A stretch of 50,521 bases of DNA from assembly GCA_964565215.1 (NCBI GenBank), contig CAZMCO010000003.1, positions 1-50,521 of the forward strand, given 5' to 3'. Below the pieces are notes generated by a model. That model was not told the DNA's origin. It was given only the letters and a program-made list of their open reading frames with translations, and searched no databases. The stretch's first letter is position 1. Each line of letters starts with the position of its first letter. The position numbers and the translations under genes are program-made. This stretch comes from an uncultured Candidatus Saccharibacteria bacterium (lineage in GTDB: Bacteria; Patescibacteriota; Minisyncoccia; Portnoybacterales; UBA2143). Of this stretch, positions 3,149-39,351 are shown piece by piece.

Positions 3149-3826
3149 ATGAGAAGCAAAATATTATTTTTATTAGTTGTTTTATTGATTATTGCCGGAG
3201 CAATTTTTTATTTTTGGTTAGAAAGAGAAAAAAATTCTATTCAAACTTTGGAAGACCAAGAAGAACAATTATTCAATATTACCCCACCGACTGATTTTGA
3301 CGAGTATCAAATAGATAGAGTTAATGGAAAATTAGGCGACTTAAAAAAAATGTATCAAGAAGATAAAGAAGATACTAATTTCTGGCTCGGCTTGGGTAAT
3401 CTGAGAAATTTTGTCCGAGATGAGCAAGGAGCCATTAGCGCTTATCAGAAATGCTTGGAAATCAATCCATTAAATATGGTGGCTAATATTAATATAGCTG
3501 ATGTTTATGAAAAAAAATTAGAGGACTTTCCTAAAGCCGAGGAATATTATAAAAAGGCCATTGATAATCAATTTAATAATCCAGATTTATATAATCGGCT
3601 GGGACGGCTTTATTATTTAAAGATGGATTGGCCAGCCGAAGCCGAAAAAACATTTTTAGAAGGACTGGAAAAAACTGATAATTTTCCGGACTTATTAGTC
3701 GGTTTGATAAATTTTTATAAGCAACAAAACAGAACAGAAGATGAAATTAAATATATCAAAATTTTATTAGAGCTTTACCCTGATAATCAACTTTATCAGC
3801 AAGCATATTCAAAATTTATAGAATAA
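3149..3826 (+). CDS. Membrane-anchored TPR repeat protein
   Basis: N-terminal hydrophobic helix (ILFLLVVLLIIAGAIFYFWL) followed by TPR-like repeats (AISAYQKCLEINPLN, AEEYYKKAIDNQFNNPDLYNRLGRLYY). Its stop lies 1 nt before the next gene. Confidence 0.7.
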   Translation: MRSKILFLLVVLLIIAGAIFYFWLEREKNSIQTLEDQEEQLFNITPPTDFDEYQIDRVNGKLGDLKKMYQEDKEDTNFWLGLGNLRNFVRDEQGAISAYQKCLEINPLNMVANINIADVYEKKLEDFPKAEEYYKKAIDNQFNNPDLYNRLGRLYYLKMDWPAEAEKTFLEGLEKTDNFPDLLVGLINFYKQQNRTEDEIKYIKILLELYPDNQLYQQAYSKFIE

Positions 3827-3827
3827 T

Positions 3828-5990
3828 ATGTTTTACAAAGCACTGGAAAAAATATTGATTTTTGGCTTACCCATTGGTTTAGCTGTTCCTCTTTTAATGG
3901 ACAAGCATTTTTTGTTTCCTTTTATTACAGTTAAAACCTATTTTTTCTATATCTTAGTAGATATTCTTTTTTGCTGCTATCTCTTGCTCTTGACTAAAAA
4001 AAAGCTTTATCCGTTAAAAAGCAAATTAAGCTATTTTTTATTTGGACTAATTGCTTTACGTTTTTTACTAGATATTTTGGGAATTAACTTTACTAGAAGC
4101 TTTTGGGGAAATTATGAAAGAATGCTCGGGCTATATACTTGGCTCCATATTTTAATCTATTTATGGATGATTTTGAGTATCTATAGTATTCGTGAGAAGT
4201 ATATAAACTTATTTAAAATCAGTGTTTTTGTCAGTTTATTAGTCAGTATCTACGGTATTTGCCAAAAATTCGGCCTATATTTTTGGGTCGTCTTAGAGAC
4301 AGGCGATGAACGAGTTTATTCCACTTTGGGCAATGCGGCTTTTTTGGCTGGTTATCTATTAATTAATGTATTTTTTGCCTTATATTTATTTGGCAGAAAG
4401 AAGAATTTATCTTGGCGGTTCTTTTATGGTCTAGTTATAGTAATAAATTTATTTGTTCTGTTTTCTACAGCCACCCGGGGGGCCATGGTCGGTCTTTTAG
4501 TCGCCATGATGGTGATGTTTTTGTTTGCTTTGCTCTTCTATAAAGATAGAAAGGTTAAAATAATTTCCGGGCTGCTCTTGTTATTGATAATTTTAGGCAG
4601 CTTTTCTATCTTTATGCTTAAAGATACTTGGCTGATAAAAAACAACTTAGCCCTTCGTCGTATCAGCCAGATTAATTTAGAAGAAGGAACGACTAAATCA
4701 AGATTGCTTTTATGGAAAATGAGCTGGCAGGCCTTCCAAGATAGATTTTTGTTTGGTTACGGCGATAATAATCTGATTATTCCCTTGGATAGATACCATG
4801 ATTTTGAATTGACTAGTGATTGGTTTGACAGTTCGCACAATCAATTTTTTGATGAACTGTTAACTCATGGAATAATTGGTTTAATAGCTTATCTTTTATT
4901 TTTATTCTTAATCTTTAAACAAATCATTAAAGAGAAATCTAATGATTTTTGGTTAAGTATTGTCTTTTTAGGTTTACTAACTGCTTATTTAGTCCAGAAT
5001 TTATTTATTTTTGACACTTTAACCATTATCTTGTTATTTATTTTATTTTTCGGATTTTTGTCTTTAAAAACAGATGCCAAGAAAGAAATAATGATTAATA
5101 AAACTTTACCTAAAAGTTTAACAAAACTTTTTGTGGTAGTTATTTTAATTTTAGTCAGTTTTGTTTATTTACATACTATTCCTCCCTTAGTTAAAATAGT
5201 TCAAGGTCAGAAATATATTAAAGTTGACATTGATAAAACAACTAAAATGTTTAAAGAGGCAGAAGAACAGGCTTGGTTTGGCTATGATAATCTAGCTCCT
5301 TTAATGGCTGAAAATGCCTTAATGGTTTTAAAACAGCCAGAGAATTATAATATCAATCAATTAGCCAGATATATGTCGGTGGTTATAGCTACTTATAAAA
5401 AAGCTATTATTGCTTCAAATAATTATTCCAAATTTTACATTAATTTAGCCAAACTATATCAAACAGCCAGAATAATTAACCCAAATTTTGTTGATCAATC
5501 TATTGATTTATTAAAACAGGCCCAAGAATATTCTCCCAATAGAATTGATATATATTATGTTTTAGCTCAAGGGTATTTTTATAAAGACGATATTACTTCG
5601 GCAGAAAATATTCTCAAAGAGGCGCTCAAATTGAATGTTCGTCAGGCTAATGTTTATTCAAGCTTGGCTGAAATTCAATTTAGAAAAGGCGAACCAGCCG
5701 ATGGTTTTGAGAGTTTGGAAATGGCTGAACAGTTTAATAGAAAAATAAGCTTTGAACAATGGGAAAAATTCGCTCAAATTTTAGTCGTCAGAGAAAAATG
5801 GCCAGATGTTTTAAAAACATTTTTTGAAGTAGATAAGCTAAGACCAAATGAAGTCAATGTTTATTTTAATATCGCCTTGACTTATAAAAAAATGGGCCAT
5901 AAAGAAAAAGCCAGAGAATTCGCTTTAAAAATTTTAGAAATAGATCCTCAAGCAAGAGAAATGGTTAATGCCTTTTTAAACACCTTGTAG
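3828..5990 (+). CDS. O-antigen ligase/polymerase-like (Wzy_C family) polytopic membrane protein with C-terminal TPR domain
   Basis: About 12 predicted TM helices. Wzy_C-type motifs are STATRGAMVG and SSHNQFFDELLTHGIIGL. The C-terminal ~250 aa are TPR-like (YYVLAQGYFYKDDITSAENILKEALKLN, YFNIALTYKKMGHKEKAREFALKILEIDP). Paralog of 35440-37614. Confidence 0.8.
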   Translation: MFYKALEKILIFGLPIGLAVPLLMDKHFLFPFITVKTYFFYILVDILFCCYLLLLTKKKLYPLKSKLSYFLFGLIALRFLLDILGINFTRSFWGNYERMLGLYTWLHILIYLWMILSIYSIREKYINLFKISVFVSLLVSIYGICQKFGLYFWVVLETGDERVYSTLGNAAFLAGYLLINVFFALYLFGRKKNLSWRFFYGLVIVINLFVLFSTATRGAMVGLLVAMMVMFLFALLFYKDRKVKIISGLLLLLIILGSFSIFMLKDTWLIKNNLALRRISQINLEEGTTKSRLLLWKMSWQAFQDRFLFGYGDNNLIIPLDRYHDFELTSDWFDSSHNQFFDELLTHGIIGLIAYLLFLFLIFKQIIKEKSNDFWLSIVFLGLLTAYLVQNLFIFDTLTIILLFILFFGFLSLKTDAKKEIMINKTLPKSLTKLFVVVILILVSFVYLHTIPPLVKIVQGQKYIKVDIDKTTKMFKEAEEQAWFGYDNLAPLMAENALMVLKQPENYNINQLARYMSVVIATYKKAIIASNNYSKFYINLAKLYQTARIINPNFVDQSIDLLKQAQEYSPNRIDIYYVLAQGYFYKDDITSAENILKEALKLNVRQANVYSSLAEIQFRKGEPADGFESLEMAEQFNRKISFEQWEKFAQILVVREKWPDVLKTFFEVDKLRPNEVNVYFNIALTYKKMGHKEKAREFALKILEIDPQAREMVNAFLNTL

Positions 5991-6021
5991 TTTAAAAGGG
6001 TATGTATTTTAAGGACGGGCC

Positions 6022-7116
6022 TTAAATGTAGAGCCTTTTTGTTTTTCGGAGCATTTTTTCTAAACTGAATTCTTTAATTGCTTTTTGAAGAGCTTCTTGG
6101 GCTAAGTTTTGAGCTATTTTTGGATTGTTTATCAGATAGAGAATCTTAGCAGCTAATTGTTGGCTGTTTTTTGATGGGACTAGGTTTGAAGAAAGCATTT
6201 CCGGCACTCCACCAACTTTGGTAGCGACAATCGGTATTTGAGCGGCCATGGCTTCTAAAATAGTATAAGGCAGGCCTTCTTTAAGCGAGGGTAAGACAAA
6301 AATATCAAAGGCCTTAAGATAAGAAACAGCCTGGTCAATAAATTCAATTAAATGGATATTTTTATGCTTTTTAGCCAGCTGATACATTTTTTCTTTATCT
6401 GGATTTTCACCACTGCCGATTAAGACTAAATCAAATTGACCAGCTGCCTTAATTAGATAAACCAATCCTTTGTTTTTAGTCCATTCAGCGATTGTCCCAA
6501 TAACCAAAGGAGAGGTTCGGCCAAGTAGTTTTTTTTGGGCTTGTTGTTGAGAAAGAAAAGAAATCGCCTTAATATCAATACCATTATGAATAGTCACCAA
6601 CTTATTAGCCGGGGCAATTTTATTTTTAATGGCTATCTGTTGATCATATTTAGAAACACAGATTATTTTATCATAGAATAAGGCAGTTAATTTACTAAAA
6701 ATTTTAATTAAAAAAATTTGCCAATTGGGTCTGTCTTCATTAAAAGCCCAGCCATGAACAGTGAAAATTAGGCGGGTTTTCCGACTGGCGATTCGGGCCG
6801 CTAAGCCAACCAAGCCACCGGCCTTGGAGCTATTAACATGGATGACGTCTGGCCTTAATTGAAAAAGTAATCCTAATATTTCGAAAAAAGCAAAAAAATC
6901 CTTAAAAGGATTGATTGTTCTTTGGAAATTGTTAATTTGATAATAAGGAATATTAGCTTGTTTAATTTTTTGAGCGAATTTTCCCTGGCCGCCAGCGGCG
7001 ATAAGTACCCTAAATTCATCTTTAGATAAATGAGTGGCTAAATCATAAACATATTTAGCGGCCCCGCCCCAGACCGATTTAGTAATAATATATAAGCAAG
7101 TTGATTTTTTAGTCAT
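6022..7116 (-). CDS. Glycosyltransferase, GT4 family (GT-B fold)
   Basis: N-terminal GGAAKYVYDL and the C-terminal EX7E region LPSLKEGLPYTILEAMAAQIPIVATKVGGVPEM. Confidence 0.85.
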   Translation of the reverse strand: MTKKSTCLYIITKSVWGGAAKYVYDLATHLSKDEFRVLIAAGGQGKFAQKIKQANIPYYQINNFQRTINPFKDFFAFFEILGLLFQLRPDVIHVNSSKAGGLVGLAARIASRKTRLIFTVHGWAFNEDRPNWQIFLIKIFSKLTALFYDKIICVSKYDQQIAIKNKIAPANKLVTIHNGIDIKAISFLSQQQAQKKLLGRTSPLVIGTIAEWTKNKGLVYLIKAAGQFDLVLIGSGENPDKEKMYQLAKKHKNIHLIEFIDQAVSYLKAFDIFVLPSLKEGLPYTILEAMAAQIPIVATKVGGVPEMLSSNLVPSKNSQQLAAKILYLINNPKIAQNLAQEALQKAIKEFSLEKMLRKTKRLYI

Positions 7117-7138
7117 TTTATAGTATCTTAGACGATAT

Positions 7139-8242
7139 ATGGCTAATAATCAAGCCAAAAAAAGCATCCTTATTTTTTCCACAGCTTATTTCCCTTTGGT
7201 TGGCGGGGCTGAAGTAGCTGTTAAAGAAATTACTCAACGATTGCCTGATTGGCAGTTTGATATGATTACGGCTAAAATCCAGTCAGGACTGGCTAAATTT
7301 GAAAGAATAGGCAATATAAATGTCTATCGGGTCGGCTTTGGTCTTGGGTTTGATAAATTTCTCTTGCCTTTTTTAGGTCTTTTAAAAGCAAAGAAGTTAG
7401 AGCAAAAAAATCATTATAATCTGACTTGGTCAATTATGGCTTCTTACGGAGGTTTTTTAGGCTTATTTTTTAAGCGCTTCTATCTAAAAAAACCCTGGCT
7501 TTTAACTTTACAGGAGGGAGATCCTCCAAAAGATATTTTAAGAAAAGTTGGCATATTTAAAAAATGGTTCCACCAGATTTTTCAAAAAGCAGATTATTTC
7601 CAGGCAATTAGCGGCTTTTTATATGATTGGGCTATGAAAATGGGAGCCAGGTCAGGTGAAATAGTCCCTAATGGAGTCAACGTAGAAAAATTCAAAATTC
7701 AAAATTCAAAATCCAAAAAAGAGAAAGTGATTATCACGGTTTCGCGATTAGTTAAAAAGAATGGGATAGATGATTTAATAAAATCAGTTGCTCGATTAGA
7801 TATAAAGTTATTAATTTTAGGGACAGGGTCAGAGGAAAGTAAATTAAAAACACTGGCCAGAAAATTAAATCTTCAGGATAAAGTTGAATTTGTTGGCTAT
7901 GTTCAATATAATGATTTGCCTAAATATTATTCTTCAGCTGATGTTTTTGTTCGGCCTTCTTTATCTGAAGGATTAGGTAATGTTTTTTTGGAAGCGATGG
8001 CTTGTGGTGTTCCAATAATTGGCACGCCAGTTGGCGGTATTCCTGATTTTTTAGAAGATAGAAAAACTGGTTTATTTTGTCAGGTTAATAATCCTCAAGA
8101 TATTGCTAAGAAAATTAAAGAAATTTTAGAAAATGATGAACTACGAAAAAGTATGGTCAATAATGGTTTGAATTTAGTTAAAGATAAATATTCTTGGGAT
8201 AAAATTAGTTTAAAAATGGAGAAGATTTTTAAGAAGTTATGA
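7139..8242 (+). CDS. Glycosyltransferase, GT4 family
   Basis: FPLVGGAEVAV N-terminus and RPSLSEGLGNVFLEAMACGVPIIGTPVGGIPDF. Its stop overlaps the next start (ATGA). Confidence 0.85.
   Translation: MANNQAKKSILIFSTAYFPLVGGAEVAVKEITQRLPDWQFDMITAKIQSGLAKFERIGNINVYRVGFGLGFDKFLLPFLGLLKAKKLEQKNHYNLTWSIMASYGGFLGLFFKRFYLKKPWLLTLQEGDPPKDILRKVGIFKKWFHQIFQKADYFQAISGFLYDWAMKMGARSGEIVPNGVNVEKFKIQNSKSKKEKVIITVSRLVKKNGIDDLIKSVARLDIKLLILGTGSEESKLKTLARKLNLQDKVEFVGYVQYNDLPKYYSSADVFVRPSLSEGLGNVFLEAMACGVPIIGTPVGGIPDFLEDRKTGLFCQVNNPQDIAKKIKEILENDELRKSMVNNGLNLVKDKYSWDKISLKMEKIFKKL
7687..7714 (+). repeat. Tandem heptanucleotide repeat (aaaattc x3 plus aaaatcc) inside the GT4 coding sequence
   Basis: Read directly: aaaattc at 7687-7693, 7694-7700 and 7701-7707, then aaaatcc at 7708-7714. 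The unit length is not a multiple of 3. Confidence 0.8.
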
Positions 8243-9387
8243 AAGACAAACGAATTTTAATTTTAACTGGTGTTTTTCCGCCGGATATTGGCGGACCAGC
8301 TACTCAATTAGATGCTTTGATTAAAGAACTGATTAAAAACGGTTATCAAGTTAGAGTTTTAACTTTTGGTTCGTCAGATAATGTGGTATATCCTTATTCA
8401 GTCAAAAGAGTTTCTAATCATTGGCCTGGTTTTTTAAAAAGTTTTGTTTATTTAAAAAAAGGTTTTTGGTATGCTTTACGGGCAGATATTTTGTATAGCC
8501 AGGATTTATATACAGCTGGCTTGACTGGTTTAATTATTAAGAAAATTTTAAGAAGACCTTTAGTTACTCGATTTGTCGGTGATTCAGCTTGGGAAACTGC
8601 TTCTTCGCGGGGCTGGATTGATGATGATATTTTGACTTTTCAAGAAAAAAAATATTCTTGGCTCATAGAATTGCGCAAGAAAATAAGAAAAAAGATATTA
8701 ATCAATTCAGATAAGATTATTGTGGTTAGTTATTTTTTACAAGATTTGGCCCAAAAAATTGGCTTAGCCAAGGAGAAAATAAAAGTTATTTATAATTCCA
8801 TTGATTTTTTAGCTATAGAGCCGGGCTTATCTAATAAGAAAGGCATCATTCTTTTAACTATGGCTCGTTTAACTCCATGGAAAGGTATTGATATGTTGAT
8901 TGAAATTATGCCCAAGTTAATTAAAAAATATGACCAGATTAATTTAATGATTGTCGGCCAGGGTTTGGAATTGGCTAATTTAAAACAATTGACTAAAAAC
9001 CTTAATTTAGAGAATAATGTCTTTTTTGTTGGTAAAGTAGGTCGTCAAGGGGTGATTGATTATCTCAAAGAAGCTGATTTATTTGTTTTAAATACTAATT
9101 ATGAAGGAATGTCGCATTGTCTTTTAGAGGCAATGAAAATAGGTCTGCCAATTATTACCACTAAAGCTGGCGGTAATCCAGAGACAATTAAAAACAATCA
9201 GACCGGTCTGCTGGTTGATTATCGGAATAAAAAACAATGGCTAGAGGCAATTAATTTGATTTTAGATAATCCAGATTTAGCAGAAAGATTGGTTAAACAG
9301 GCAAAAGAAGATTTAAAACGATTTAGCTGGTCCAAATTAGTCCAAGAGACGATAAATGTTTTTAGAAGCTTAAATTCATCGGATTAA
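8239..9387 (+). CDS. Glycosyltransferase, GT4 family
   Basis: FPPDIGGPATQ N-terminus and LNTNYEGMSHCLLEAMKIGLPIITTKAGGNPE. Confidence 0.85.
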   Translation: MKDKRILILTGVFPPDIGGPATQLDALIKELIKNGYQVRVLTFGSSDNVVYPYSVKRVSNHWPGFLKSFVYLKKGFWYALRADILYSQDLYTAGLTGLIIKKILRRPLVTRFVGDSAWETASSRGWIDDDILTFQEKKYSWLIELRKKIRKKILINSDKIIVVSYFLQDLAQKIGLAKEKIKVIYNSIDFLAIEPGLSNKKGIILLTMARLTPWKGIDMLIEIMPKLIKKYDQINLMIVGQGLELANLKQLTKNLNLENNVFFVGKVGRQGVIDYLKEADLFVLNTNYEGMSHCLLEAMKIGLPIITTKAGGNPETIKNNQTGLLVDYRNKKQWLEAINLILDNPDLAERLVKQAKEDLKRFSWSKLVQETINVFRSLNSSD

Positions 9388-9388
9388 T

Positions 9389-10075
9389 ATGTATAAAAGA
9401 CAAAATGAATTAAAAAAAATAATTTTAGCAAAAGGCTGTTACGACAAAGAAGAAAATTTAAGGATTTATAATAAATTTTTTAAAGATTGGTTCAATAATC
9501 ATAATTATATTTATAACAAGTTTAAAATTAAAGATTCATTTAGAATTTTGGATATCGGCTGCGGTCCTGGACATAATCTAATTCATTTTAGTCAAGATTC
9601 TGTGGGGATAGAAATTAATGATTATATGATAGATTTTGGGAGAAATTTAGGGATAAATATTATCAGAGCGAATGTGGAAGATAATTTACCCACAATTAAT
9701 GGGAGATTTGATTTGATTTGGTGTACTGATTTTTTAATTCATCTGGTTAGCCCTTTTAGATTTTTATTTAAAATCAGAAAGTATTTTGATGACGACAGCC
9801 GTTTAGTTATTCAAATTCCTAAGATTTCTATTTTTAAAACTCATGAAAGTCCGGAACATTTTTACGCATTTAATAAGGAAGATTTATCTTATTTATTAAG
9901 GATATCTGGCTACAAAATAATTGATTTTTCCGGTTATATTAGAACAAAACCAAATTATTTAAATAAAATTCTTGAGCCATTACTTCAAAAATTCGGTCCC
10001 AATATTTGGATTTTGGCTAAAAAAGATAAATATTCAGGCATTACAGATAAAACGTTTTTACCATCTTGGTTTTAA
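9389..10075 (+). CDS. Class I SAM-dependent methyltransferase
   Basis: SAM-binding motif I, ILDIGCGPGHN, followed by FDLIWCTDFLIHL. Confidence 0.75.
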   Translation: MYKRQNELKKIILAKGCYDKEENLRIYNKFFKDWFNNHNYIYNKFKIKDSFRILDIGCGPGHNLIHFSQDSVGIEINDYMIDFGRNLGINIIRANVEDNLPTINGRFDLIWCTDFLIHLVSPFRFLFKIRKYFDDDSRLVIQIPKISIFKTHESPEHFYAFNKEDLSYLLRISGYKIIDFSGYIRTKPNYLNKILEPLLQKFGPNIWILAKKDKYSGITDKTFLPSWF

Positions 10076-10077
10076 AT

Positions 10078-11538
10078 ATGCCTAAAGTTTTATTGATTAA
10101 CCCCCCTTTTAATATTAGTAAGGCAAACTACGAAACGAGTATTTCAGTCGGGCTTTTGTCTTTGGCTTCTTATTTAGACCAGCAAGGTATTGAAGTAAAA
10201 ATTATTGATGCTATTCGTCAGAAGAATTATTTAGAATTGATTCAACAAGAGTTGCCCAAAGTTGATTTAGTTGGTTTGTCAGTAATGACTATGCAGGTTA
10301 GTTCCGCTTTAAAAATATCAAAATTAATCAAAGATTTTAAGCCGCAAATACCAATTGTCTGGGGCGGTGTTCAGCCAACTCTTTTTCCCGAACAGGTAGT
10401 CAGCCATCCCTTAATTGATATAGCTGTCTTTGGCGAAGGAGAACAAACATTATTAGATTTAGTTCAGACAATTAGAAATAAAGGTGATTTGAAAAGTATT
10501 CCCGGCCTTGCTTTTCAAAAAAAAGGAAAAGTTGTTGTTAATAGGAAAAGGTCATTTTTAAAAATGAATGATTTGCCTTTGTCTAAATGGTCTTTAATGC
10601 CTAAGGAGGTTTTAGAGGATATTATCCTAATTCCTACTCATACTAGCCGGGGCTGTCCTCATCAATGCGCTTTTTGTATTAATTCTATCACCAATAATTT
10701 CTGGCGGGGTTACTCCCCAGAAAAAGTTTTAGAGGGTTTAGAAAAAATTAAGCAGCTTTCCTATTTCCAAGATAAACCAATGCGCTTTTGGGATGAGAAT
10801 TTTTTTACTGACATCCCAAGAGCTAAAGCAATTATTGAAGGGATGATTGAAAGAAAACTGGATAGACCATGGGAAACCACTGTCCGAGTAGATTATATTA
10901 GAGAAGGAATGATTGATGATAATTTTTTAAACCTTTTAAAAAAATCTGGTTGTTATCTTTTATCTTATGGCGGCGAATCCGGTTCAGAAATTGTTTTAAA
11001 AAAAATCAATAAAGGCATTAAACCAGAGCAAATTATTTATTCGGCTAAGCAGACCTTAAAATATGATATTATTCCTCAATATTCCTTTATGGTTGGCTTG
11101 CCCGGCGAGGAGCCAGCTGACATTAAGAAAACTATTCAAATAATTGACCAGTTGACTGACTTGAGCCCGCAAATTCAAATTTTGGGACCACAGGCCTTTC
11201 GGCCTTATCCTGGTTCAATTCTTTATCAGGAGTGTCTCTTGAGCGGCTGGTCAGCTCCTCAATCATTAACTGACTGGGCTAAGGCAGTTAAAGACGAATT
11301 AAATTTTTTATCGCCGCGTAATTTTCCTTGGGTTAAAGATATTGACTTAGTTGAATCATTAGAGGCCTATGTCAGATTTGGCGCTCATACGATTAAGAGC
11401 GCTCTTGACTCAACCGTTAAGACAAATAAGATATTTAAGCTGCTTTTTATTTTATTATGTCAGCTAAGATGGAAATTAAAATTCTTTAAATGGCCGATAG
11501 AGTTTAGAATAGCTAAAAAAGCAGTTACTAAAATATGA
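10078..11538 (+). CDS. B12-binding-domain radical SAM enzyme (class B rSAM, COG1032-like)
   Basis: N-terminal Rossmann/B12-like domain (VLLINPP...GLSVMT...PIVWGG) and the CX3CX2C cluster motif HTSRGCPHQCAFCIN. The ATG at 10078 is preferred over the TTG at 10066 used in the ORF track. Paralog of 13662-15173. Confidence 0.85.
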   Translation: MPKVLLINPPFNISKANYETSISVGLLSLASYLDQQGIEVKIIDAIRQKNYLELIQQELPKVDLVGLSVMTMQVSSALKISKLIKDFKPQIPIVWGGVQPTLFPEQVVSHPLIDIAVFGEGEQTLLDLVQTIRNKGDLKSIPGLAFQKKGKVVVNRKRSFLKMNDLPLSKWSLMPKEVLEDIILIPTHTSRGCPHQCAFCINSITNNFWRGYSPEKVLEGLEKIKQLSYFQDKPMRFWDENFFTDIPRAKAIIEGMIERKLDRPWETTVRVDYIREGMIDDNFLNLLKKSGCYLLSYGGESGSEIVLKKINKGIKPEQIIYSAKQTLKYDIIPQYSFMVGLPGEEPADIKKTIQIIDQLTDLSPQIQILGPQAFRPYPGSILYQECLLSGWSAPQSLTDWAKAVKDELNFLSPRNFPWVKDIDLVESLEAYVRFGAHTIKSALDSTVKTNKIFKLLFILLCQLRWKLKFFKWPIEFRIAKKAVTKI

Positions 11539-15173: not shown

Positions 15174-15181
15174 AAATTTTA

Positions 15182-19206: not shown

Positions 19207-19210
19207 TTAT

Positions 19211-23624: not shown

Positions 23625-23628
23625 TATC

Positions 23629-29415: not shown

Positions 29416-29423
29416 ATAAAATT

Positions 29424-32368: not shown

Positions 32369-32790
32369 TCAAACTTGATATTGGTTGCGGAAAAAGGAAA
32401 AGAAAAGGATGTATTGGTATAGATATTGATAAAAACAGCCAGGCTGATATTATTGCTTCAGCTTTAGAACTTCCTTTTAGTGATAATAATATAGATGAAA
32501 TATATTCTGTTCATTTGGTAGAGCATTTTTCTCCTCAAGAAGCTCAAAATTTTTTTAATGAGATTTATCGGGTCTTGAAAAAAGGTGGTCAGGTATTTTT
32601 GAAAATTGATGTTGATTGGACTAAAAAAAGATTATTAACAAAAGACCCAACCCATAAATACCGCTATTCAGTTAGAGAAATAAAAAAAATACTCAAGCAG
32701 TTTAATTTTAGCCAGAGCAAAGTAGTCAGAAAGATATATTTAATAAAAGGTCATTTAAGAAATAAGATTTTTGTTGAGTTAGTTAAATGA
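32353..32790 (+). CDS. Small class I SAM-dependent methyltransferase (Methyltransf_11-like)
   Basis: KLDIGCGKRKRKGCIGIDI, IDEIYSVHLVEHF, LKKGGQVFLKI. 16-nt overlap with the upstream rSAM gene. Confidence 0.7.
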   Translation: MDKNLIKLDIGCGKRKRKGCIGIDIDKNSQADIIASALELPFSDNNIDEIYSVHLVEHFSPQEAQNFFNEIYRVLKKGGQVFLKIDVDWTKKRLLTKDPTHKYRYSVREIKKILKQFNFSQSKVVRKIYLIKGHLRNKIFVELVK

Positions 32791-32798
32791 TTGTTAAT

Positions 32799-34049
32799 TT
32801 AGATTTTTTTAACCAACCAGCAAGTGATGGCTAAGTTGATAAAACGACCAATGACCAGAGCTAAAATTACGCCTAGTAAACCGTAAAGATGAATAAACAG
32901 AAATAGCAAACCTATTCGGATAAGCGGGCTGTAAATATTTAATTGATATAATTGCTTTTTAGCCATTTTGGCTTGGAGGACGACATGAGGCAGTATGCCA
33001 ACGGCTGTAATTAATGAAATTGAAAATATTTGGGAGTAAAAAACTGATTCTAAATATTGAGGAAAAAATAATTTATAGAAGTAAGGGGCTAAGAAAATAT
33101 ATACGACAATACCCAAGCCAATAAACAGAGCAAGTTTGAACATTTTTTGGAAAATAGTCGCTTTGATTTCTTTCCTGGGTCTGACGGAAAATTTAGGCAG
33201 AGTTAAAAGCCGGATGTTTTTAAGAAAACTTTTTAATTGTTCTGGCGGAATAACGGCAAAAGAATAAATAGCTAATTCAGCCGCTCCCAAATAGTGGAAA
33301 ACAAGAATCTTATCTAAGTAATTAGCCAAAGTATCAATTACACCTATTAGGGTTAAATGTTTACCATAAGAAATAGTTTGTGGGTCTTCCTCTTTGTTTA
33401 AGCGAGGTTTTTTTAATGTCAATATCAGAAAAATAAACCGGAAGAGAGTATAAGAGAAAAAATAAACTAAAAGAATTAAGAATAGATTCTTAGTCAGAAA
33501 AAGGGTAAGGATTAAAGCAGTTATTGAGAGGAAATGAACTAAAGTAGAATATTTGACTTTAATATTAAATAATTTTCTGCCAGCCAGCAGAGCGTTATAA
33601 ATATTAAAAGAATCCATTAAGGGGAGAAACACGGCAATAATCAAAAAAGAAATAGTTAAGGTAATATTGTCATTAAAATAATAATAACCAGCTAATCCTA
33701 AAGAAGCTAATCCGCCTAAGATGCCCCAGTGGATTTTGGTTTTTAATCCTCTGATTAAAGACCCTTGATAACCTCGGCTGACAGCTTGGATGACAGCTGT
33801 GTCAATTCCGGCTAATGTTGGAATAGCTAACAAGCTGGCTATAGAAAGAATATATCTGAAAAACCCATAGGTTTCTTTGGGTAATAAATTAGCAAAAGCC
33901 AGAGCCAATAAAAAAGAACAGATAGTGGAAATTATCTGTCCCAGGGTCAGCCAAGAACCGCCTTTAGCTAAATAGATCATATCAGTTTTAGTATATTTTT
34001 CAGATCGGCGAAGAAGGCGATAGATTTTCTGTCTTGCGCTTTTTATCAT
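32799..34049 (-). CDS. Wzx-type oligosaccharide flippase (MOP/polysaccharide biosynthesis protein family)
   Basis: 416 aa, about 12 TM helices. N-terminus GGSWLTLGQIISTICSFLLALAFANLLPKETYGFFRY is typical of the Polysacc_synt family. TAATG overlap with the upstream phosphoglycosyltransferase gene. Confidence 0.75.
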   Translation of the reverse strand: MIKSARQKIYRLLRRSEKYTKTDMIYLAKGGSWLTLGQIISTICSFLLALAFANLLPKETYGFFRYILSIASLLAIPTLAGIDTAVIQAVSRGYQGSLIRGLKTKIHWGILGGLASLGLAGYYYFNDNITLTISFLIIAVFLPLMDSFNIYNALLAGRKLFNIKVKYSTLVHFLSITALILTLFLTKNLFLILLVYFFSYTLFRFIFLILTLKKPRLNKEEDPQTISYGKHLTLIGVIDTLANYLDKILVFHYLGAAELAIYSFAVIPPEQLKSFLKNIRLLTLPKFSVRPRKEIKATIFQKMFKLALFIGLGIVVYIFLAPYFYKLFFPQYLESVFYSQIFSISLITAVGILPHVVLQAKMAKKQLYQLNIYSPLIRIGLLFLFIHLYGLLGVILALVIGRFINLAITCWLVKKI

Positions 34050-35380
34050 TATCTGCCGCCTCCTTTTAAAATAATTTTAATGGTTCTTAAGAGAATACTT
34101 AAGTCTAAGATAAATGAGCGGTGTTTAATGTAGAAAAGCTCGTATTGGAGTTTTTCAATACTGTCTTGGACCGAAGCACCGTAGTGAAAATTGACTTGAG
34201 CCCAGCCAGTTAAACCGGGTTTGACAATGTGACGGATTTGATAATAGGGAATTTCTTTTTCCAGTTGCTGGACAAACTCAATTCTTTCCGGCCGCGGACC
34301 AATAAAACTCATCTGGCCAGTAAAAATATTCCACATTTGCGGTAGTTCGTCTAAGCGAGTTTTGCGTAGAAAATTACCTAGTCGGGTGATACGGTAATCT
34401 TGATGGTCAGCCCATTGAGCGCCGTTTTTTTCGGCTTCTTCAATCATTGAACGAAATTTAATCACCTTAAAAATTTGACCATCCTGACTGATTCTTCTTT
34501 GTTTAAAGAAAATAGGTCCTCGACTATCCAATTTTATAGCCAAGATAATTAAAGGATAAAAAATTAAACTGATTAAGCCAAAAACAAAAGCGCCCAGCAT
34601 ATCAAAAATTCGCTTAAAGGCCTCATAAAAGTTTTTTTGACTTTCAGTTAAATTTTCCAAAAACCATATTTCACCAATACTGGAAATAGGTACTTTGCCT
34701 AATATTTTTTCATAAAAAGAAGGCAGGTCGCTAAAACTGATTTTGAGTGGCAGGCATTGATATAAACTCTGGACTAATCTTGAATCATGATGAGGGTCAA
34801 TGGCGGTGATGATTGTTTTAATATTTTTTTGAGTAGCCATTTCCAACAAGTCAAAAGGGGTTTGGATGTTCCGGGGTTTGATTTGTTTAATTGTTCGGTA
34901 ACCCAATTGAGGGTTATCTTTAATGATTTGATTTATCTGTTCGCTTTCTTTGTTTCTGCCGATAAAGAGGACATTGTTGACGAGAGTCGAGGTTTTAAGC
35001 AGATGGTTATAAAGCTGCCGCCAAGCAGAAAAAAGCAAAGTGAAAATAGTTAAATTCAAAAATAGATTTGTTTTAGGGGTAATGCCGAAGTAATGAATAA
35101 AATAAAAGAAAGCAATGGCTAAACCAGCATTAATCATTAAGCCGCGCAGCAAAGTAGAATAGAAGTTTATATTATTTCTGGCTAAGGTCAGTTCATAAAG
35201 GCCGGCAATATAAAAGACAATTAACCAGAAGAAATAAATAATAGTAAAAGGCCAAAAATGCTGATGCCAGCGATTAAAATCAAAATTGCCGCCGTAGCGG
35301 ACGAATAGAGTTAGCCAAAGGGACAAATATAAAACAAGGATATCACCGAGTAGTAAAGTGATTTTTTTTAGATTAGGCAT
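34049..35380 (-). CDS. Initiating polyprenyl-phosphate phosphoglycosyltransferase (WbaP/Bac_transf family, large form)
   Basis: N-terminal TM bundle and a central nucleotide-binding-like domain. The C-terminal catalytic domain has FKRIFDMLGA, KFRSM, LDELPQ, GPRPE and TGWAQV. Confidence 0.9.
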   Translation of the reverse strand: MPNLKKITLLLGDILVLYLSLWLTLFVRYGGNFDFNRWHQHFWPFTIIYFFWLIVFYIAGLYELTLARNNINFYSTLLRGLMINAGLAIAFFYFIHYFGITPKTNLFLNLTIFTLLFSAWRQLYNHLLKTSTLVNNVLFIGRNKESEQINQIIKDNPQLGYRTIKQIKPRNIQTPFDLLEMATQKNIKTIITAIDPHHDSRLVQSLYQCLPLKISFSDLPSFYEKILGKVPISSIGEIWFLENLTESQKNFYEAFKRIFDMLGAFVFGLISLIFYPLIILAIKLDSRGPIFFKQRRISQDGQIFKVIKFRSMIEEAEKNGAQWADHQDYRITRLGNFLRKTRLDELPQMWNIFTGQMSFIGPRPERIEFVQQLEKEIPYYQIRHIVKPGLTGWAQVNFHYGASVQDSIEKLQYELFYIKHRSFILDLSILLRTIKIILKGGGR

Positions 35381-35403
35381 TGATTTTATTCTATCATTTT
35401 AAC

Positions 35404-35432
35404 TTGATAAATCAAGCTCAATAAAGTAAAAT
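35404..35432 (+). promoter_or_regulatory. Candidate promoter, TTGATA-N17-TAAAAT, ending 7 nt before the ATG at 35440
   Basis: ttgata at 35404-35409, 17-nt spacer, taaaat at 35427-35432. It lies in the 59-nt divergent spacer between the phosphoglycosyltransferase and Wzy_C-TPR genes. Confidence 0.4.
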
Positions 35433-35439
35433 AAGTATA

Positions 35440-37614
35440 ATGAGACCAAATATTATTAAAGGAATTATTTATACCTGTCTCTATTTAACTTTGATAGCTC
35501 CTTTTTTAGTTTGGGGAAGATTTTTATTCCCTTATATTACTCCCAAGACGCTCTTTTTCCGAATACTTATTGAAATAGCTCTATTTTTCTATATTTTACT
35601 GATTATTTATTGGCCTCAATATCGGCCTCGCTTTTCTAAATTAACCTGGGCAATTTTGATTTATTTTTTAATTATTACCTTTGCCAGTATTTTTGGCCTT
35701 GATCCTTACCGCAGTTTTTGGGGAAATATTGAAAGAGGCGAGGGATTATTGACTATTTATCATTTATTTATCTTTTTTATCTTGATTAGTAGTTTATTTA
35801 AGGAAAAAAAAGAATGGCTAAGGTTTTTTAATATTTCTGTTTTTGTTAGTTTGTTGATTAGTTTTTATGCTTTGGGTCAAAAATTGGGCATAGGTTTTTT
35901 GCTGCCCAGCGCTGGCGGTACTCGCTTAACCGGCACCATTGGTAATGCCAGTTTTTTAGCGGCTTATTTATTATTAAATATTTTTCTTTGTTTGTTTCTT
36001 TTTGTTAATAAAAGACATCCTGGCTGGCGAATTTTCTATGGATTAGTTTTTTTATTTGAGGTCTATATTCTTTTTCAGACAGAAACCAGAGGCGCTCTAT
36101 TGGGCTTTTTTGGCGGCTTATTGCTTTTAGCTCTTTTAAGTATTATTTTTTCTAAAAACAAAAAACTCAAGCTTGGATTTGTTGGTCTGTTTTTAATATT
36201 AATTGTTTTAGCCACTTCAATTTGGCTTTGTCGAGATCAGTCCTGGGTTAATAATATTAATGCCTTGCGTCGTTTAACGACCATTTCTACTACTGATATC
36301 ACTACTCAATCGCGACTGTTGGGCTGGCAGGCCGCTTGGCAGGGCTGGCAGGATAGATTTCTTTTTGGTTATGGCTATGAGAATTACAATATTGCTTTTA
36401 ATAAATACTTTCCTGTTTTAATTTACCACGATCCTGGCTCCCGGGTTTGGTTTGACCGGGCTCATAATATTGTTTTTGACCAGGCCGTGCCCGGCGGTAT
36501 TTTTGGTTTATTAGCCTATCTAAGTATTTTTGGATTGACTCTTTGGATTTTATTGTCTAAGAGGCGTCGTGACGATATTGGTTCTTTTATTTTAATTTCT
36601 CTTTTAGCGGCTTATTTTGTTCAAAACTTTTTTGTCTTTGATACTTTGGGCACTTATATTCTTTTTTATTCAGTTTTAGGTTTTCTGGCTTATTTATCTA
36701 CCTCTGGCCAGAATCAAATAAAGCCGGGCAGTCAGCCAAGAATGTTTTTTGTTGTTATTTTAGCCCTAGTTTTTATCTGGTCTGTTTATATCTTTAACAT
36801 TAAGCCAGCTACGGTTAATGCTTTTTCGATTAGGGGATTAAGTTTTGCTTATCATAATAATTATCGCCAAGCCATAGATGAATTTAAAAAGGCCTTGGAA
36901 TATCAGACCAATCAAGCGCCCGAAATTAGGCAAAATTTAGTTAATTTGGTTACTAATGCTTCGCAGAGTAATCAGTTTACTCAACAAGAAAATAAAGAAA
37001 ATTTTGATTTTGCTATTCAAGAAATAGAAAAGAACCTGGCCAGGTCTCCTTTAAATGCTCGCCATTATATGTTTGCCATGACTCTTTATAATGCAGCTGG
37101 TCAATATAACCGGGTAGTTGATTTAGGCTATCAGGCCTTAAATTTGAGTCCAAGTCGTCCCCAGATTTATTATCTGATGGGTCAAGCCAGAATATCTCAG
37201 GGTAAATATCAAGAAGGTATTGAGTATTTCAGAAAAGCCGTAGAATTGAATCCTCAGGTGATGGAATCATATTGGAATTTAGCCACCGCCTATATTATTA
37301 CTAGGCAAAATGAATTAACCGAAGAAGTATTTAGCCAAATGGCAGAAAGAGGCTTTAATTATTATTCAACGAATAGCTTGCAAAGATTGACTAAAATTTA
37401 TTCAGCCATAAAAGATTTTCAGAAACTCACTTTACTTTATCAAGAGATGATTAAATTAGAACCAAATAATCCTGACCTTTATGCTAGATTAGCCGCTGCT
37501 TATAAAGGAATAGGTCAAATAGCCAAAGCTAAAGAAGCGGTTCAAAAAGCCGTGGAATTAAATCCCGGCTTCAAAGAAGAAGCCGAAGCGTTTTTAAACT
37601 CATTAGAAGAATAA
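35440..37614 (+). CDS. O-antigen ligase/polymerase-like (Wzy_C family) membrane protein with C-terminal TPR domain (paralog of 3828-5990)
   Basis: It shares with 3828-5990 FLFPYITPKTLFF, SFWGNIERGEGL, QTETRGALLG, DRAHNIVFDQAVPGGIFGL and VQNFFVFDT. The C-terminal TPRs include YYLMGQARISQGKYQEGIEYFRKAVELNP and LYARLAAAYKGIGQIAKAKEAVQKAVELNP. Confidence 0.8.
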   Translation: MRPNIIKGIIYTCLYLTLIAPFLVWGRFLFPYITPKTLFFRILIEIALFFYILLIIYWPQYRPRFSKLTWAILIYFLIITFASIFGLDPYRSFWGNIERGEGLLTIYHLFIFFILISSLFKEKKEWLRFFNISVFVSLLISFYALGQKLGIGFLLPSAGGTRLTGTIGNASFLAAYLLLNIFLCLFLFVNKRHPGWRIFYGLVFLFEVYILFQTETRGALLGFFGGLLLLALLSIIFSKNKKLKLGFVGLFLILIVLATSIWLCRDQSWVNNINALRRLTTISTTDITTQSRLLGWQAAWQGWQDRFLFGYGYENYNIAFNKYFPVLIYHDPGSRVWFDRAHNIVFDQAVPGGIFGLLAYLSIFGLTLWILLSKRRRDDIGSFILISLLAAYFVQNFFVFDTLGTYILFYSVLGFLAYLSTSGQNQIKPGSQPRMFFVVILALVFIWSVYIFNIKPATVNAFSIRGLSFAYHNNYRQAIDEFKKALEYQTNQAPEIRQNLVNLVTNASQSNQFTQQENKENFDFAIQEIEKNLARSPLNARHYMFAMTLYNAAGQYNRVVDLGYQALNLSPSRPQIYYLMGQARISQGKYQEGIEYFRKAVELNPQVMESYWNLATAYIITRQNELTEEVFSQMAERGFNYYSTNSLQRLTKIYSAIKDFQKLTLLYQEMIKLEPNNPDLYARLAAAYKGIGQIAKAKEAVQKAVELNPGFKEEAEAFLNSLEE

Positions 37615-37617
37615 ACC

Positions 37618-39351
37618 ATGAGGAAATACTTAATTATAATAATTGGGAGTTTGTTTGTTTGCTTAACTGGTGCGCAGGCAGCTGAATTAGGCGAACAAGT
37701 CGATTTTTATGTTGATTCTGGTTACGATGCTTTTGACCGAGGCCATTTAACAGCTACTTTACAAGCTGTTGGCGATAATATTTATTTTTACCTTGATAAT
37801 AATTATTGGGATAAATTGAATACTAATCAAAGAAATTTATTAAGAAAAACCTTGGAGGACTTGGCTGACGAATTTGACCAAGTGATTTATCCTAAAGAAA
37901 GAGCTGTCTTTGGTTCAGAGTGGACTCCCGGCATTGATAACGATAAAAAAATTACTGTTTTGATTAGTCAGTTAGTTAACAATGCCGGCGGTTATTTCAA
38001 TACTTATGATGAATTTTCTCGTTCGCAAATTCCCACTTCTAATCAAAGAGAAATGCTTTATCTTAATGCTCTTAATATTTTGAGTGATAAAAATAAGGCC
38101 TTTTTAGCTCATGAGTTCCAGCATTTAATTAGTTTTTATCAAAAAACCGTCTTATACGGATTAGAAGAAGAAGTCTGGCTCAATGAAGCCCGTTCCGAAT
38201 ATGCGCCAACTCTCTGCGGCTATAATGATGTTTACGCAAATAGTTATTTAGCTGACCGGGTAGATGTTTTTTTGGACGAACCATCTGATTCTTTGACCGA
38301 ATGGAAAAATAAAGTGGATGATTATGGAATAGTCACTTTATTTTTACATTATTTAGTTGACCATTATGGTACTGAAATTTTAACTCGGATGACTTTAAAT
38401 AACCAAATAGGCATAGCTAGCGTTAATAGTGCCTTAGCTGATTTAGGCTACTCGGAAACATTTTCTGATATTTTTGCTGATTGGGCGGTGGCTGTTTATC
38501 TTAATGATTGTCAAGTGGATTCGGAAAATAAGTATTGTTATCTTAATGATAATTTAACTTATCAACGCCTTCATGTTGATTATTCGGCTAGTTATAGCGG
38601 TTTTCCTAATTTGATTGTTTCTCGAAGCAGCTCGATTAAAGATTGGTCTCCTCATTGGTATAGATTTAGACAAGGAACAATTGCCTCAACAGATAGAGAT
38701 GTCTTAAAATTAGAATTTGATGGCTCGACAATTAAGGGCGACTTTCGGGTGCCTTACATTGTCACTGGCCAAAATAGCCAAACAACAGTTCAGTTTATTC
38801 CCTTAGATAATCAACAAGGCGTTATTTATGTTCCTAACTTCACTAGTTTAAATAAGTCAATCATTATGATTCCCTTTAATCAGTATAAGAAAAGTAGTTT
38901 TGGCAGCAATGAGGCCTTAGGTTCATTTTCCTTTACGGCTTCTAGTGTGGCTGAGGTCCCGATTATTGAAAATAACGAAGAAAATCAACCAACTGTTAAT
39001 TATCCTGAAGGTAGTTTAATTCGGGCCATTGGCGACTATAAGGTTTACATTATTAAGAACGGTTATCGACGCTGGATTCAAAAAGCGGAAATTTTTAACG
39101 CCTATAGTCATCTTAGATGGGAAGATATTATAGAAGTTAGCCCAGAGGAGCTGGCTGAATATCAAGAGGCTTGGTTGATTCGAGCTGATGGTGATCGTAG
39201 AGTTTATGAAGTTAATGCTGACGGAACTAAACATTGGCTTAATATGACAGCTGAAGAGTTTAATATTAGCGGTCGACTCTGGGAAATGGTTTATATAGTC
39301 AATACTTTTGAAAGAGACTTTTACCAAACTGGAGCCAATGTTTTATTTTAA
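37618..39351 (+). CDS. Secreted gluzincin-like zinc metallopeptidase with two C-terminal ~50-aa repeats
   Basis: Signal peptide MRKYLIIIIGSLFVCLTGAQA. HEFQH followed 20 residues later by WLNEA, which is the HEXXH...E arrangement. C-terminal tandem repeats are SLIRAIGDYKVYIIKNGYRRWI and WLIRADGDRRVYEVNADGTKHWL. Confidence 0.55.
   Translation: MRKYLIIIIGSLFVCLTGAQAAELGEQVDFYVDSGYDAFDRGHLTATLQAVGDNIYFYLDNNYWDKLNTNQRNLLRKTLEDLADEFDQVIYPKERAVFGSEWTPGIDNDKKITVLISQLVNNAGGYFNTYDEFSRSQIPTSNQREMLYLNALNILSDKNKAFLAHEFQHLISFYQKTVLYGLEEEVWLNEARSEYAPTLCGYNDVYANSYLADRVDVFLDEPSDSLTEWKNKVDDYGIVTLFLHYLVDHYGTEILTRMTLNNQIGIASVNSALADLGYSETFSDIFADWAVAVYLNDCQVDSENKYCYLNDNLTYQRLHVDYSASYSGFPNLIVSRSSSIKDWSPHWYRFRQGTIASTDRDVLKLEFDGSTIKGDFRVPYIVTGQNSQTTVQFIPLDNQQGVIYVPNFTSLNKSIIMIPFNQYKKSSFGSNEALGSFSFTASSVAEVPIIENNEENQPTVNYPEGSLIRAIGDYKVYIIKNGYRRWIQKAEIFNAYSHLRWEDIIEVSPEELAEYQEAWLIRADGDRRVYEVNADGTKHWLNMTAEEFNISGRLWEMVYIVNTFERDFYQTGANVLF

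Follow-up and report, generated by a model that had tools for sequence, protein, structure and literature searches.

A strain-variable candidate surface-glycan locus carrying a recurrent radical SAM cassette in a Portnoybacteria-like bacterium

What does a genome-reduced bacterium build with five radical S-adenosylmethionine (rSAM) genes interleaved with glycosyltransferases? This question is raised by a block at positions 3149-39351 of contig CAZMCO010000003.1 (assembly GCA_964565215.1), a stretch of 50,521 nt from an uncultured bacterium of the candidate phyla radiation (CPR), hereafter called the window. An initial annotation, made from the letters alone, had described the block as a cobalamin-dependent island for glycan assembly and tailoring. 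We listed open reading frames (ORFs) in six frames and scanned all 41 large ORFs of the window with Pfam and NCBIfam. In our preferred reading, to which we give a probability of about 60%, the block serves to build a cell-surface glycan in a Portnoybacteria-like CPR bacterium, varies between strains and comprises two nested systems. Domain assignments, synteny and the division into cassette and flank are read at the homology level; we infer substrate, reaction type, use of cobalamin and acceptor. Genes lie on the plus strand unless indicated otherwise.

The scans reproduced the gene list of the initial annotation almost exactly and at the same coordinates. The block encodes one initiating phosphoglycosyltransferase (PGT), a Wzx-type flippase, two Wzy_C-TPR proteins, seven GT4, two GT2 and one GT-C glycosyltransferases (GTs) and a UPF0104 protein. 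Tailoring genes comprise four rSAM enzymes with a B12-binding domain (rSAM1 to rSAM4), one rSAM with a SPASM/twitch domain, four methyltransferases (MT1 to MT4) and two Ntn amidotransferases. The list needed correction at two points, since MT3 is frameshifted and the SPASM domain appears twitch-like, and three further members of the block had been left out, namely a TPR ORF (3149-3826) and two Pfam-less ORFs (15182-16654 and 37618-39351). Twenty-five genes form a same-strand array from 7139 to 32790. Intergenic distances range from -44 to +59 bp, as expected from the description of the block as almost free of spacers. The divergent junctions at 7116-7139 and 35380-35440 span just 22 and 59 bp, and their promoters therefore overlap coding sequence or are unusually compact. 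This domain inventory, together with a variable cassette next to a conserved flank, agrees with the proposed function in surface-glycan assembly and tailoring.

The suspected CPR host was confirmed by SecA, whose closest named relatives are from Portnoybacteria/Patescibacteria (74-78% identity). The closest named relative of rSAM4 is also from Portnoybacteria (68% identity), and by their sequences the island genes look native to a CPR host. The G+C content falls from about 42% left of about 3 kb to about 30-35% in the island; within the window, this drop suggests the left boundary of the island. On the right, the window aligns at the DNA level with contig L095, from a relative whose SecA is 92% identical; this homology begins exactly at window position 34051 and runs rightward through the genes for the PGT (92% amino acid identity), Wzy_C-TPR B (80%), a 577-aa protein (88%), MurB, HPF, SecA and SecDF. 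Left of the PGT gene, L095 has other genes, for a GT2, for a methyltransferase and for a protein of 574 aa, where the window has Wzx, MT4 and the SPASM rSAM. A more distant relative (L097) retains the PGT (73%), a homolog of the 577-aa protein (66%) and murB, and has no Wzy_C-TPR gene. The two Wzy_C-TPR genes had been thought to bracket a single island. Since the PGT, Wzy_C-TPR B and 577-aa genes are common to relatives, the right-hand copy belongs instead to a conserved flank. The genes left of 34049 are, judged by these alignments, strain-variable as in O-antigen and capsule loci.

Inside the variable part, the region 17800-25552 stands out by its recurrence elsewhere. It opens with a GT-C (PMT_2) membrane glycosyltransferase (17800-19206; PF13231, 55.6 bits against a cut-off of 26.1; 10 transmembrane (TM)-like segments). 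GT2_a follows (19211-20095), which Pfam and NCBIfam place close to polyprenyl-phosphate sugar synthases and which carries C-terminal TM helices (TM-like segments at residues 215-284); its best NCBIfam matches are AglJ, PgfS, PpgS, dolichyl-phosphate hexose transferase and ArnC, all below cut-offs. Next come the class I methyltransferase MT2 (20079-20819; Methyltransf_11, 85 bits), then rSAM3 (20823-22226) and the HpnJ-like rSAM4 (22230-23624), both with B12-binding and Radical_SAM domains. The membrane GT2 GT2_b (23629-24642; Glyco_tranf_2_3/Glyco_transf_21 type by Pfam and NCBIfam) and a UPF0104/LPG_synthase_TM membrane protein (24599-25552; PF03706, 57.6 bits), a putative flippase, complete the cassette.

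We classified ORFs against the window proteins in 80 metagenome loci and several genome contexts of rSAM4 orthologs. For 23 loci, in which the sequence reached 4 kb or more beyond the ortholog in each direction, we counted the neighbours within 5 kb. A GT2 was present in 21 of these loci, a PMT_2 GT-C in 16, a class I methyltransferase also in 16 and another B12-type rSAM in 14. GT4 (9/23), Wzx (4/23) and PGT (2/23) genes were found less often. The commonest order was GT2_a, GT2_b, rSAM4, methyltransferase, GT-C. Relatives of the UPF0104 protein occurred in 13 of 83 loci, chiefly those of the nearest relatives, when a better-seeded hidden Markov model (HMM) was used; a first HMM had under-detected them (2 loci). 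A Saganbacteria genome has the cassette by itself, surrounded by housekeeping genes, with plsX/rpmF on one side and mutL on the other. A longer synteny is seen in contigs L024 and L063, with Wzy_C-TPR, PGT, GT2_a, rSAM3, rSAM4, methyltransferase, GT2_b, GT4 and rSAM1, the rSAM1 orthologs (51-52% identical) adjoining GT4. Since neighbour counts and cassette order recur across loci, window 17800-25552 appears to be one copy of a widespread module, inserted here in a Wzx/Wzy locus.

Homologs of rSAM4 number thousands. The top 120 clusters (at the 90% identity level) are 45-71% identical to it and represent Patescibacteria, Saganbacteria, Chloroflexota, Caldisericales, WS2 and Aenigmarchaeota; at the 50% level, about 1,049 clusters match at E<=1e-30. 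A scan of genome contigs with the rSAM4 protein alone gave only distant matches (25-29% identity), which informed neither synteny nor taxonomy. Several homologs are fusions with a methyltransferase of class I or TylF type; such fusions, as sequence evidence, tie both enzymes to one presumed pathway. Among the homologs, four proteins (P0349, P0352, P0421 and P0424) of 1,400-2,280 aa, the largest of 2,279 aa, carry two to four HpnJ-like rSAM repeats each. The density of rSAM genes had been considered rare. In sequence databases it is not, with more than 120 ortholog clusters, 80 metagenome loci and, in a denser locus on one Patescibacteria contig, six rSAMs within 12 kb, five of the B12 type and one of the SPASM type. 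The literature is a different matter, and here the earlier impression was correct: we found no rSAM-rich locus for O-antigen, capsule or CPR glycan that has been characterised, nor a described cassette of the GT2/rSAM/methyltransferase/GT-C type.

What chemistry could the cassette perform? A specific clue concerns rSAM4, which matches the HpnJ family TIGR03471 with 362.2 bits, below the cut-off of 577.6, the next family reaching 105 bits; rSAM3 scores 208.1 bits against the same model. Direct alignment of rSAM4 with HpnJ gave 35% identity over 98% of the length, with the common motifs RGC...CTFCLWP, DDT, WSC, VGYES and GLPGET. HpnJ, assigned by genetics only, is proposed to convert a lipid-linked glucosamine to a cyclitol by contraction of the pyranose ring, a non-methylating reaction (PMC13459092, PMC9204698). 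It presumably requires a free amine. The gene order in Paraburkholderia is hpnJ, hpnI (a GT2) and then a gene with an LPG_synthase domain, which corresponds to rSAM4, GT2_b and UPF0104. Differences were also observed. The cluster motif of rSAM4, CYWGQCTFC (window 22857-22883, residues 210-218), places its cysteines C210, C215 and C218 in a CxxxxCxxC spacing, which is invariant in the family alignment of 19 rSAM4 orthologs from bacteria and archaea, whereas HpnJ, MoeK5-like proteins and the related proteins of Lawsonia have CxxxCxxC. The partners of rSAM4 are methyltransferases and a GT-C, and the carriers of the cassette are CPR bacteria and other anaerobes not known as hopanoid makers. None of shc, hpnH, hpnG and hpnK was found in the window.

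The initial annotation had described the four B12-domain rSAMs as cobalamin-dependent and had suggested C-methylation. These were assumptions, since rSAM4 is HpnJ-like and the best structure for rSAM3 and rSAM4 is AprD4. We weighed the alternative that all four, including rSAM4, are cobalamin-dependent C-methyltransferases acting on glycan sugar carbons, while class I methyltransferases add O- or N-methyl groups, and consider it possible but doubtful. The class B rSAMs characterised so far are mostly methylases (PMC12931638), and all four proteins pass the PF02310 gathering cut-off of 32.1 bits (72.6, 65.3, 61.4 and 38.0 bits). The paralogs rSAM1 (10066-11538; motif CPHQCAFC; overlapping the class I methyltransferase gene MT1, 9389-10075, assigned by Pfam) and rSAM2 (13662-15173; Pfam and motif; 41% identical to rSAM1) are closest to the C-methylase MgmA (PDB 9ccb; PMC11796369) and to OxsB; cobalamin dependence is plausible for these two from their sequences. 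rSAM3 is 28-30% identical both to HpnJ (29%) and to a MoeK5-like B12-rSAM, a presumed sugar C-methylase (30%), of S. clavuligerus. The latter is the last gene of a row (epimerase, AsnB, unidentified ORF, AsnB-like, B12-rSAM) whose order we take to match moeE5-F5-GT1-H5-K5. The constant pairing or fusion of rSAM4 orthologs with methyltransferases also suggests a methylation-centred pathway.

Against methylation by rSAM4 stands the fact that its sole specific relative, HpnJ, is a proposed non-methylase (PMC9204698). Its B12-binding domain is marginal (38.0 bits) and went undetected in several orthologs. The AlphaFold2 model of rSAM4 (pLDDT 90.6) contains a Rossmann-type N-terminal domain, and its best Foldseek match is the aminoglycoside diol dehydratase AprD4 (TM-score 0.76-0.78), followed by the cobalamin enzymes TsrM, OxsB and MgmA (0.67-0.71). 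AprD4 is also the best PDB sequence match of both rSAM3 and rSAM4, and this enzyme has a Rossmann domain yet binds no cobalamin (PMC12931638). A Pfam B12-binding match should thus not be taken to demonstrate methylation that depends on cobalamin. The five rSAM ORFs are all of full length with intact cluster motifs, CxxxCxxC being present in rSAM1, rSAM2, rSAM3 and the SPASM enzyme. For rSAM2, whose best NCBIfam match is ApyD (170 bits against a cut-off of 750), a role in the synthesis of ribosomally synthesised and post-translationally modified peptides was set aside because spacers of at most 59 bp exclude precursor-peptide genes and because of the GT gene setting.

The likeness to HpnJ raises another possibility: the cassette could be a pathway for a membrane glycolipid head group, of an HpnI/J/L- or calditol-like, cyclitol-type and hydrolysis-resistant kind, with the Wzx and Wzy genes as separate neighbours. 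Here the order rSAM4, GT2, LPG_synthase_TM, which mirrors hpnJ-hpnI-hpnL, and the position of the lone Saganbacteria cassette beside the lipid synthesis gene plsX would fit, as would the action of HpnJ and Cds on lipid head groups (PMC13459092). We judge this possibility unlikely. In 16 of the 23 loci the cassette includes a PMT_2 GT-C, an enzyme type that passes a lipid-linked sugar to an extracytoplasmic acceptor; it is accompanied by GT2_a-type polyprenyl-phosphate sugar synthases and, in the window, it lies inside an operon-like array with GT4 genes.

The second system, around the cassette, has the parts of a lipid-linked assembly line. The gene for the initiating polyprenyl-phosphate PGT (WbaP/WcaJ-type) is the first of the conserved flank (34049-35380, minus strand; Bac_transf PF02397, 216 bits) and exceeds the cut-off of TIGR03025 (372.9 against 295.55 bits). 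The adjoining Wzx-type flippase gene (32799-34049, minus strand) is the last strain-variable one; it scores 58.1 bits for PF01943 (Polysacc_synt; cut-off 28.2), encodes 10 TM-like segments and is absent from L095. GT4 genes, recognised by Glycos_transf_1/Glyco_transf_4 domains, are found at 6022-7116 (minus strand), 7139-8242 and 8239-9387, and Pfam detects others at 11535-13672 (two genes, starting at 11535 and 12647), 16651-17799 and 30217-31335. Wzy_C-TPR A (3828-5990; PF04932, 82 bits; 13 TM-like segments), a membrane protein of polymerase or ligase type with C-terminal TPRs, begins 1 bp after the gene for a membrane-anchored TPR protein of 225 aa (3149-3826; TPR by Pfam, one N-terminal hydrophobic segment). 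Its paralog B in the conserved flank (35440-37614; Wzy_C, 65 bits; ortholog 80% identical at the same position in L095) is 34% identical to A over the full length. The 577-aa protein (37618-39351), Pfam-less and with one N-terminal TM segment, is encoded next to murB (orthologs in L095, 88%, and L097, 66%). In relatives its gene lies between that of the PGT upstream and murB downstream, in L095 directly after Wzy_C-TPR B; the protein may work with the glycan machinery as a conserved component outside the cytoplasm.

The Wzy_C domain is common to polymerases, ligases and O-oligosaccharyltransferases. Both Wzy_C-TPR proteins could therefore be PglL/PilO-type oligosaccharyltransferases of a general protein O-glycosylation system that modifies pilins or S-layer proteins and makes no polymer. 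Pfam found no Wzz/PCP chain-length regulator anywhere in the window, the C-terminal TPR domains suggest protein recognition, and CPR cells, to our knowledge, lack an outer membrane and lipopolysaccharide. However, the window revealed no gene for an acceptor protein, two paralogs would suit a polymerase and a ligase, and sequence alone does not separate these roles; we see protein O-glycosylation as rather improbable.

Sugar-nucleotide supply would come from elsewhere in the genome. As the initial annotation had stated, epimerases, dehydratases, aminotransferases, nucleotidyltransferases, Wzz and ABC exporters gave zero Pfam matches within 3149-39351. For nucleotide-sugar genes this holds for the window, but a sister contig of the same genome has an NTP_transferase gene about 6 kb upstream, and sugar-nucleotide epimerase/dehydratases are frequent in related cassettes. 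Moreover, the Pfam-less 490-aa protein of the block has a predicted fold like that of lyases and epimerases. No cobalamin riboswitch, other RNA family or tRNA was found in the window.

Taken together, the preferred reading of a surface-glycan locus with two nested systems can be put as a sequence of steps. By homology, the PGT would start a polyprenyl-diphosphate-linked oligosaccharide; from their families, the seven GT4 enzymes would extend it in the cytoplasm and Wzx would flip it across the membrane. A Wzy_C-TPR protein may then polymerise it or ligate it to the final acceptor. In parallel, GT2_a and/or GT2_b could attach a hexosamine-type sugar to a lipid carrier on the cytoplasmic side of the membrane. 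There, before export, rSAM4, rSAM3 and MT2 probably remodel the lipid-linked sugar: rSAM4 by a non-methylating radical rearrangement of the HpnJ type, rSAM3 by a C-methylation of the MoeK5 type, with O- or N-methylation to follow. The UPF0104 protein is the candidate to flip the product, which the GT-C would transfer to the exported glycan or to a surface protein. The MgmA-like rSAM1 and rSAM2, with MT1, may add C-methyl groups. Among the other tailoring proteins, a 490-aa toroid protein could act as an epimerase or lyase-like enzyme, a WbuX-like fusion could make an acetamidino group, an AsnB-family protein could amidate a uronic acid, and the twitch rSAM, with MT4 nearby, could oxidise a sugar hydroxyl. 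By analogy, the logic of the cassette would follow that of three-component systems (Arn) combined with HpnJ and MoeK5 acting on lipid-linked sugars.

A bolder proposal would make the cassette a new class of extracytoplasmic glycosylation, in which an rSAM turns an amino sugar linked to a lipid carrier into a cyclitol-type or otherwise rearranged pseudo-sugar that is then methylated, flipped and transferred. We put this forward as a speculative idea with a low probability. If it were true, surface caps resistant to glycosidases and acid would occur on the cells of CPR bacteria, of further uncultivated anaerobes and of some archaea.

Several observations weigh against the scheme. The rSAMs all fall short of the curated cut-offs of the characterised NCBIfam families, and for this reason their reaction types are guesses. 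GT2_b was ruled out as an HpnI ortholog (19% identity), as was the UPF0104 protein as an HpnL ortholog, with no significant match and no match to the NCBIfam HpnL model. An HpnK-type deacetylase was found neither in the window nor among the ten immediate neighbours of rSAM4 orthologs. A methyltransferase is the constant partner of rSAM4, though HpnJ chemistry needs none. The AsnB-family protein passed the generic asparagine synthase model and could be housekeeping. Finally, a stretch of the block, 28894-30073, is spanned by none of the independently assembled contigs.

This last point bears on whether the density of rSAM genes might be an artefact of a chimeric metagenomic assembly or of a decaying pseudogene array. 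Window 54-28893 and 30074-40643 are supported at 99.8-100% identity by contigs independently assembled from three samples (JGI 3300008516, JGI 3300028837 and Logan SRR3085416), which leaves only the unspanned stretch without such support. All these contigs end within 28.7-30.07 kb, where the gene for AsnB ends and the frameshifted MT3 lies. Exact-sequence look-up returned no identical AsnB protein from other contigs on record, and for the GT4 protein GT4_g it recovered contig L100 alone. In addition, one methyltransferase is frameshifted and window nt 1-53 do not match the sister contigs. Chimerism at the 28.9-30.1 kb joint is unlikely all the same, and we consider an artefactual origin of the rSAM array very improbable, given the three-sample support, the five full-length rSAM ORFs with their intact motifs and an equal or higher rSAM density in related loci.

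Two sequence variants were noted. The class I methyltransferase gene MT3 (29424-30220) is split by a -1 frameshift in a run of eight A at 29664-29671, its halves lying in two frames with the second ORF starting at 29714; nine A would restore the frame, and the run could be a phase-variable site, a pseudogene lesion or an assembly error. The contig from JGI 3300028837 (L002) lacks 451 bp at window 19249-19699 inside GT2_a, with 100% identity on both sides and an AATAA microhomology at the joint. This deletion shifts the frame and reads as naturally occurring loss of function in GT2_a, the GT2 that resembles polyprenyl-phosphate sugar synthases. Both lesions would fit a variable surface structure.

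Beyond the cassette, further tailoring genes were examined. The 490-aa cytoplasmic protein (15182-16654) has no Pfam or NCBIfam match. Its 79 homolog clusters form a CPR-restricted family, named members being nearly all from CPR with one from Chloroflexota, and one homolog is fused to a GT4. The AlphaFold2 model (pLDDT 94) shows an (alpha/alpha)6 toroid and a beta-sandwich, for which Foldseek returned PL17 and GAG (heparinase-type) lyases and AGE-family 2-epimerases with TM-scores of 0.4-0.6; the model points to an epimerase or lyase-like step directed at a uronate or hexose. A 667-aa fusion (25555-27558) joins an Ntn glutaminase (GATase_7) to a WbuX-like N-acetyl-sugar amidotransferase (PDB 8wex), residues 310-651 matching TIGR03573 with 146.5 bits, below the cut-off of 203.2. 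The AsnB-family amidotransferase (27568-29415) reaches 283 bits for Asn_synthase and 472 bits for TIGR01536 (cut-off 267), and is 26% identical to a MoeF5-like protein of S. clavuligerus. Together, the 490-aa, fusion and AsnB proteins hint at possible uronamide and acetamidino residues. The remaining rSAM (31319-32368; PF04055 and PF13186, 59 bits; motif CNQRCIMC) finds its best PDB matches in BtrN, DesII and BlsE. Because it has only five C-terminal cysteines, where a full SPASM motif has seven, its C-terminal region would resemble the twitch domain of BtrN. Its neighbour MT4 (32353-32790) encodes a compact, complete class I methyltransferase of 145 aa with motif I (LDIGCG) near the N-terminus.

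AsnB-type amidotransferases, B12-rSAM and GTs also co-occur in a moe-like cluster, and the nearest solved relatives are the aminoglycoside enzymes AprD4 and BtrN, so that the block might direct the synthesis of a secreted moenomycin-like phosphoglycolipid or an aminoglycoside-like product. We hold this to be highly unlikely, since the window contains Wzx, a WbaP/WcaJ-type PGT, Wzy_C proteins and a GT-C, and neither a prenyl-phosphoglycerate transferase, a cyclitol synthase nor resistance or export genes were found in it. The conserved chromosomal place next to murB and the O-antigen-like replacement of the cassette argue in the same direction.

Outside the glycan genes, a 974-aa ORF at window 1-3074 matches the C-terminal portion of a protein that is Pfam-less and 1171 aa long in the sister contigs L103 and L104. 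Further upstream, L104 encodes an LTD/beta-propeller protein, a Y1 transposase, the NTP_transferase, an ECF sigma factor and a DUF5667 protein. A second strain-variable spot lies at 43694-45318, where HD-domain and DUF3800 genes, absent from L095, separate an NlpC/P60-like gene from secD; L095 has a Y1 transposase-like gene after secA in place of the HD/DUF3800 genes. PADLOC returned zero defence-system matches for this insertion and its neighbours.

In a cultivable pathogen, plasmid 1 of Lawsonia intracellularis (L014, NC_008012; 27 kb), a cluster at 5151-18745 encodes an HpnJ-like rSAM 32-33% identical to rSAM4, a second rSAM, five class I methyltransferases, GT2s, galE, heptose-type genes of the SIS/HAD/GHMP families and a DUF2142 membrane protein. 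This cluster could be an experimental handle on the cassette type.

CPR bacteria live attached to host cells. How they attach, and how phages and hosts are recognised, probably depends in part on the chemistry of the cell surface. In this respect 17800-25552 is a compact, testable module coupling rSAM chemistry to lipid-carrier/GT-C surface glycosylation. Its characterisation would give a role to the HpnJ-like clade of about 1,049 clusters, test HpnJ-type ring contraction outside hopanoid producers, and test the reliance of genome-reduced symbionts on scavenged cobalamin for the surface coat.

How far does the locus resemble known systems? As in Wzx/Wzy loci for O-antigen, capsule or exopolysaccharide, a PGT, cytoplasmic GT4s, Wzx and Wzy_C proteins are combined with conserved flanks and a replaceable centre. 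In contrast to those loci, no Wzz/PCP, OPX or sugar-nucleotide genes were found in the window, its Wzy_C proteins are TPR fusions, and five rSAMs are interleaved. The cassette in turn resembles three-component systems (GtrA/B/C, ArnC/ArnE-F/ArnT, CsbB/GtcA/YfhO and PpgS/Rv3779) in that a GT2 adjoins a GT-C with a putative flippase nearby. No GtrA/ArnEF-type flippase was found, but the UPF0104 protein occupies a neighbouring position. The cassette departs further from these systems by one to three B12-type rSAMs, class I methyltransferases and a second membrane GT2, and its proteins do not reach the curated cut-offs. Editing of a lipid-linked sugar before flipping has a precedent in the Arn system, where it is carried out by ArnD.

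The tailoring genes recall other pathways. In moenomycin synthesis, MoeK5 is a B12-rSAM C-methylase and MoeF5/MoeH5 are AsnB-type amidotransferases, which together with the MoeGTs act on a lipid-linked saccharide (PMC9204698). The window shares with that pathway the combination of B12-type rSAM, AsnB-family amidotransferases and GTs, but has no MoeO5/MoeN5 prenyl chemistry and does have Wzx, Wzy and GT-C proteins, its product being presumably cell-bound rather than a secreted antibiotic. Aminoglycoside rSAMs (the C-methylases GenK/GenD1, the diol dehydratase AprD4 and the twitch dehydrogenase BtrN) act on carbohydrate carbons, and the best solved relatives here, with sequence identity below 20%, are AprD4 for rSAM3 and rSAM4 and BtrN for the twitch domain of the SPASM rSAM; unlike aminoglycoside clusters, the window holds no aminocyclitol pathway, and its substrates are probably lipid-linked. 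With the WbuX/AglXYZ type, the likeness covers the C-terminal 340 residues of the 667-aa fusion, which match TIGR03573 WbuX and PDB 8wex. The partners of WbuX, WbuY and WbuZ, are separate HisH/HisF-like proteins, whereas the glutaminase of the fusion is a fused Ntn (class II) domain. What is familiar in this comparison is therefore a variable surface-glycan locus and a lipid-carrier/GT-C route; what is undescribed is their coupling to an rSAM/methyltransferase module that is widespread in uncultivated lineages.

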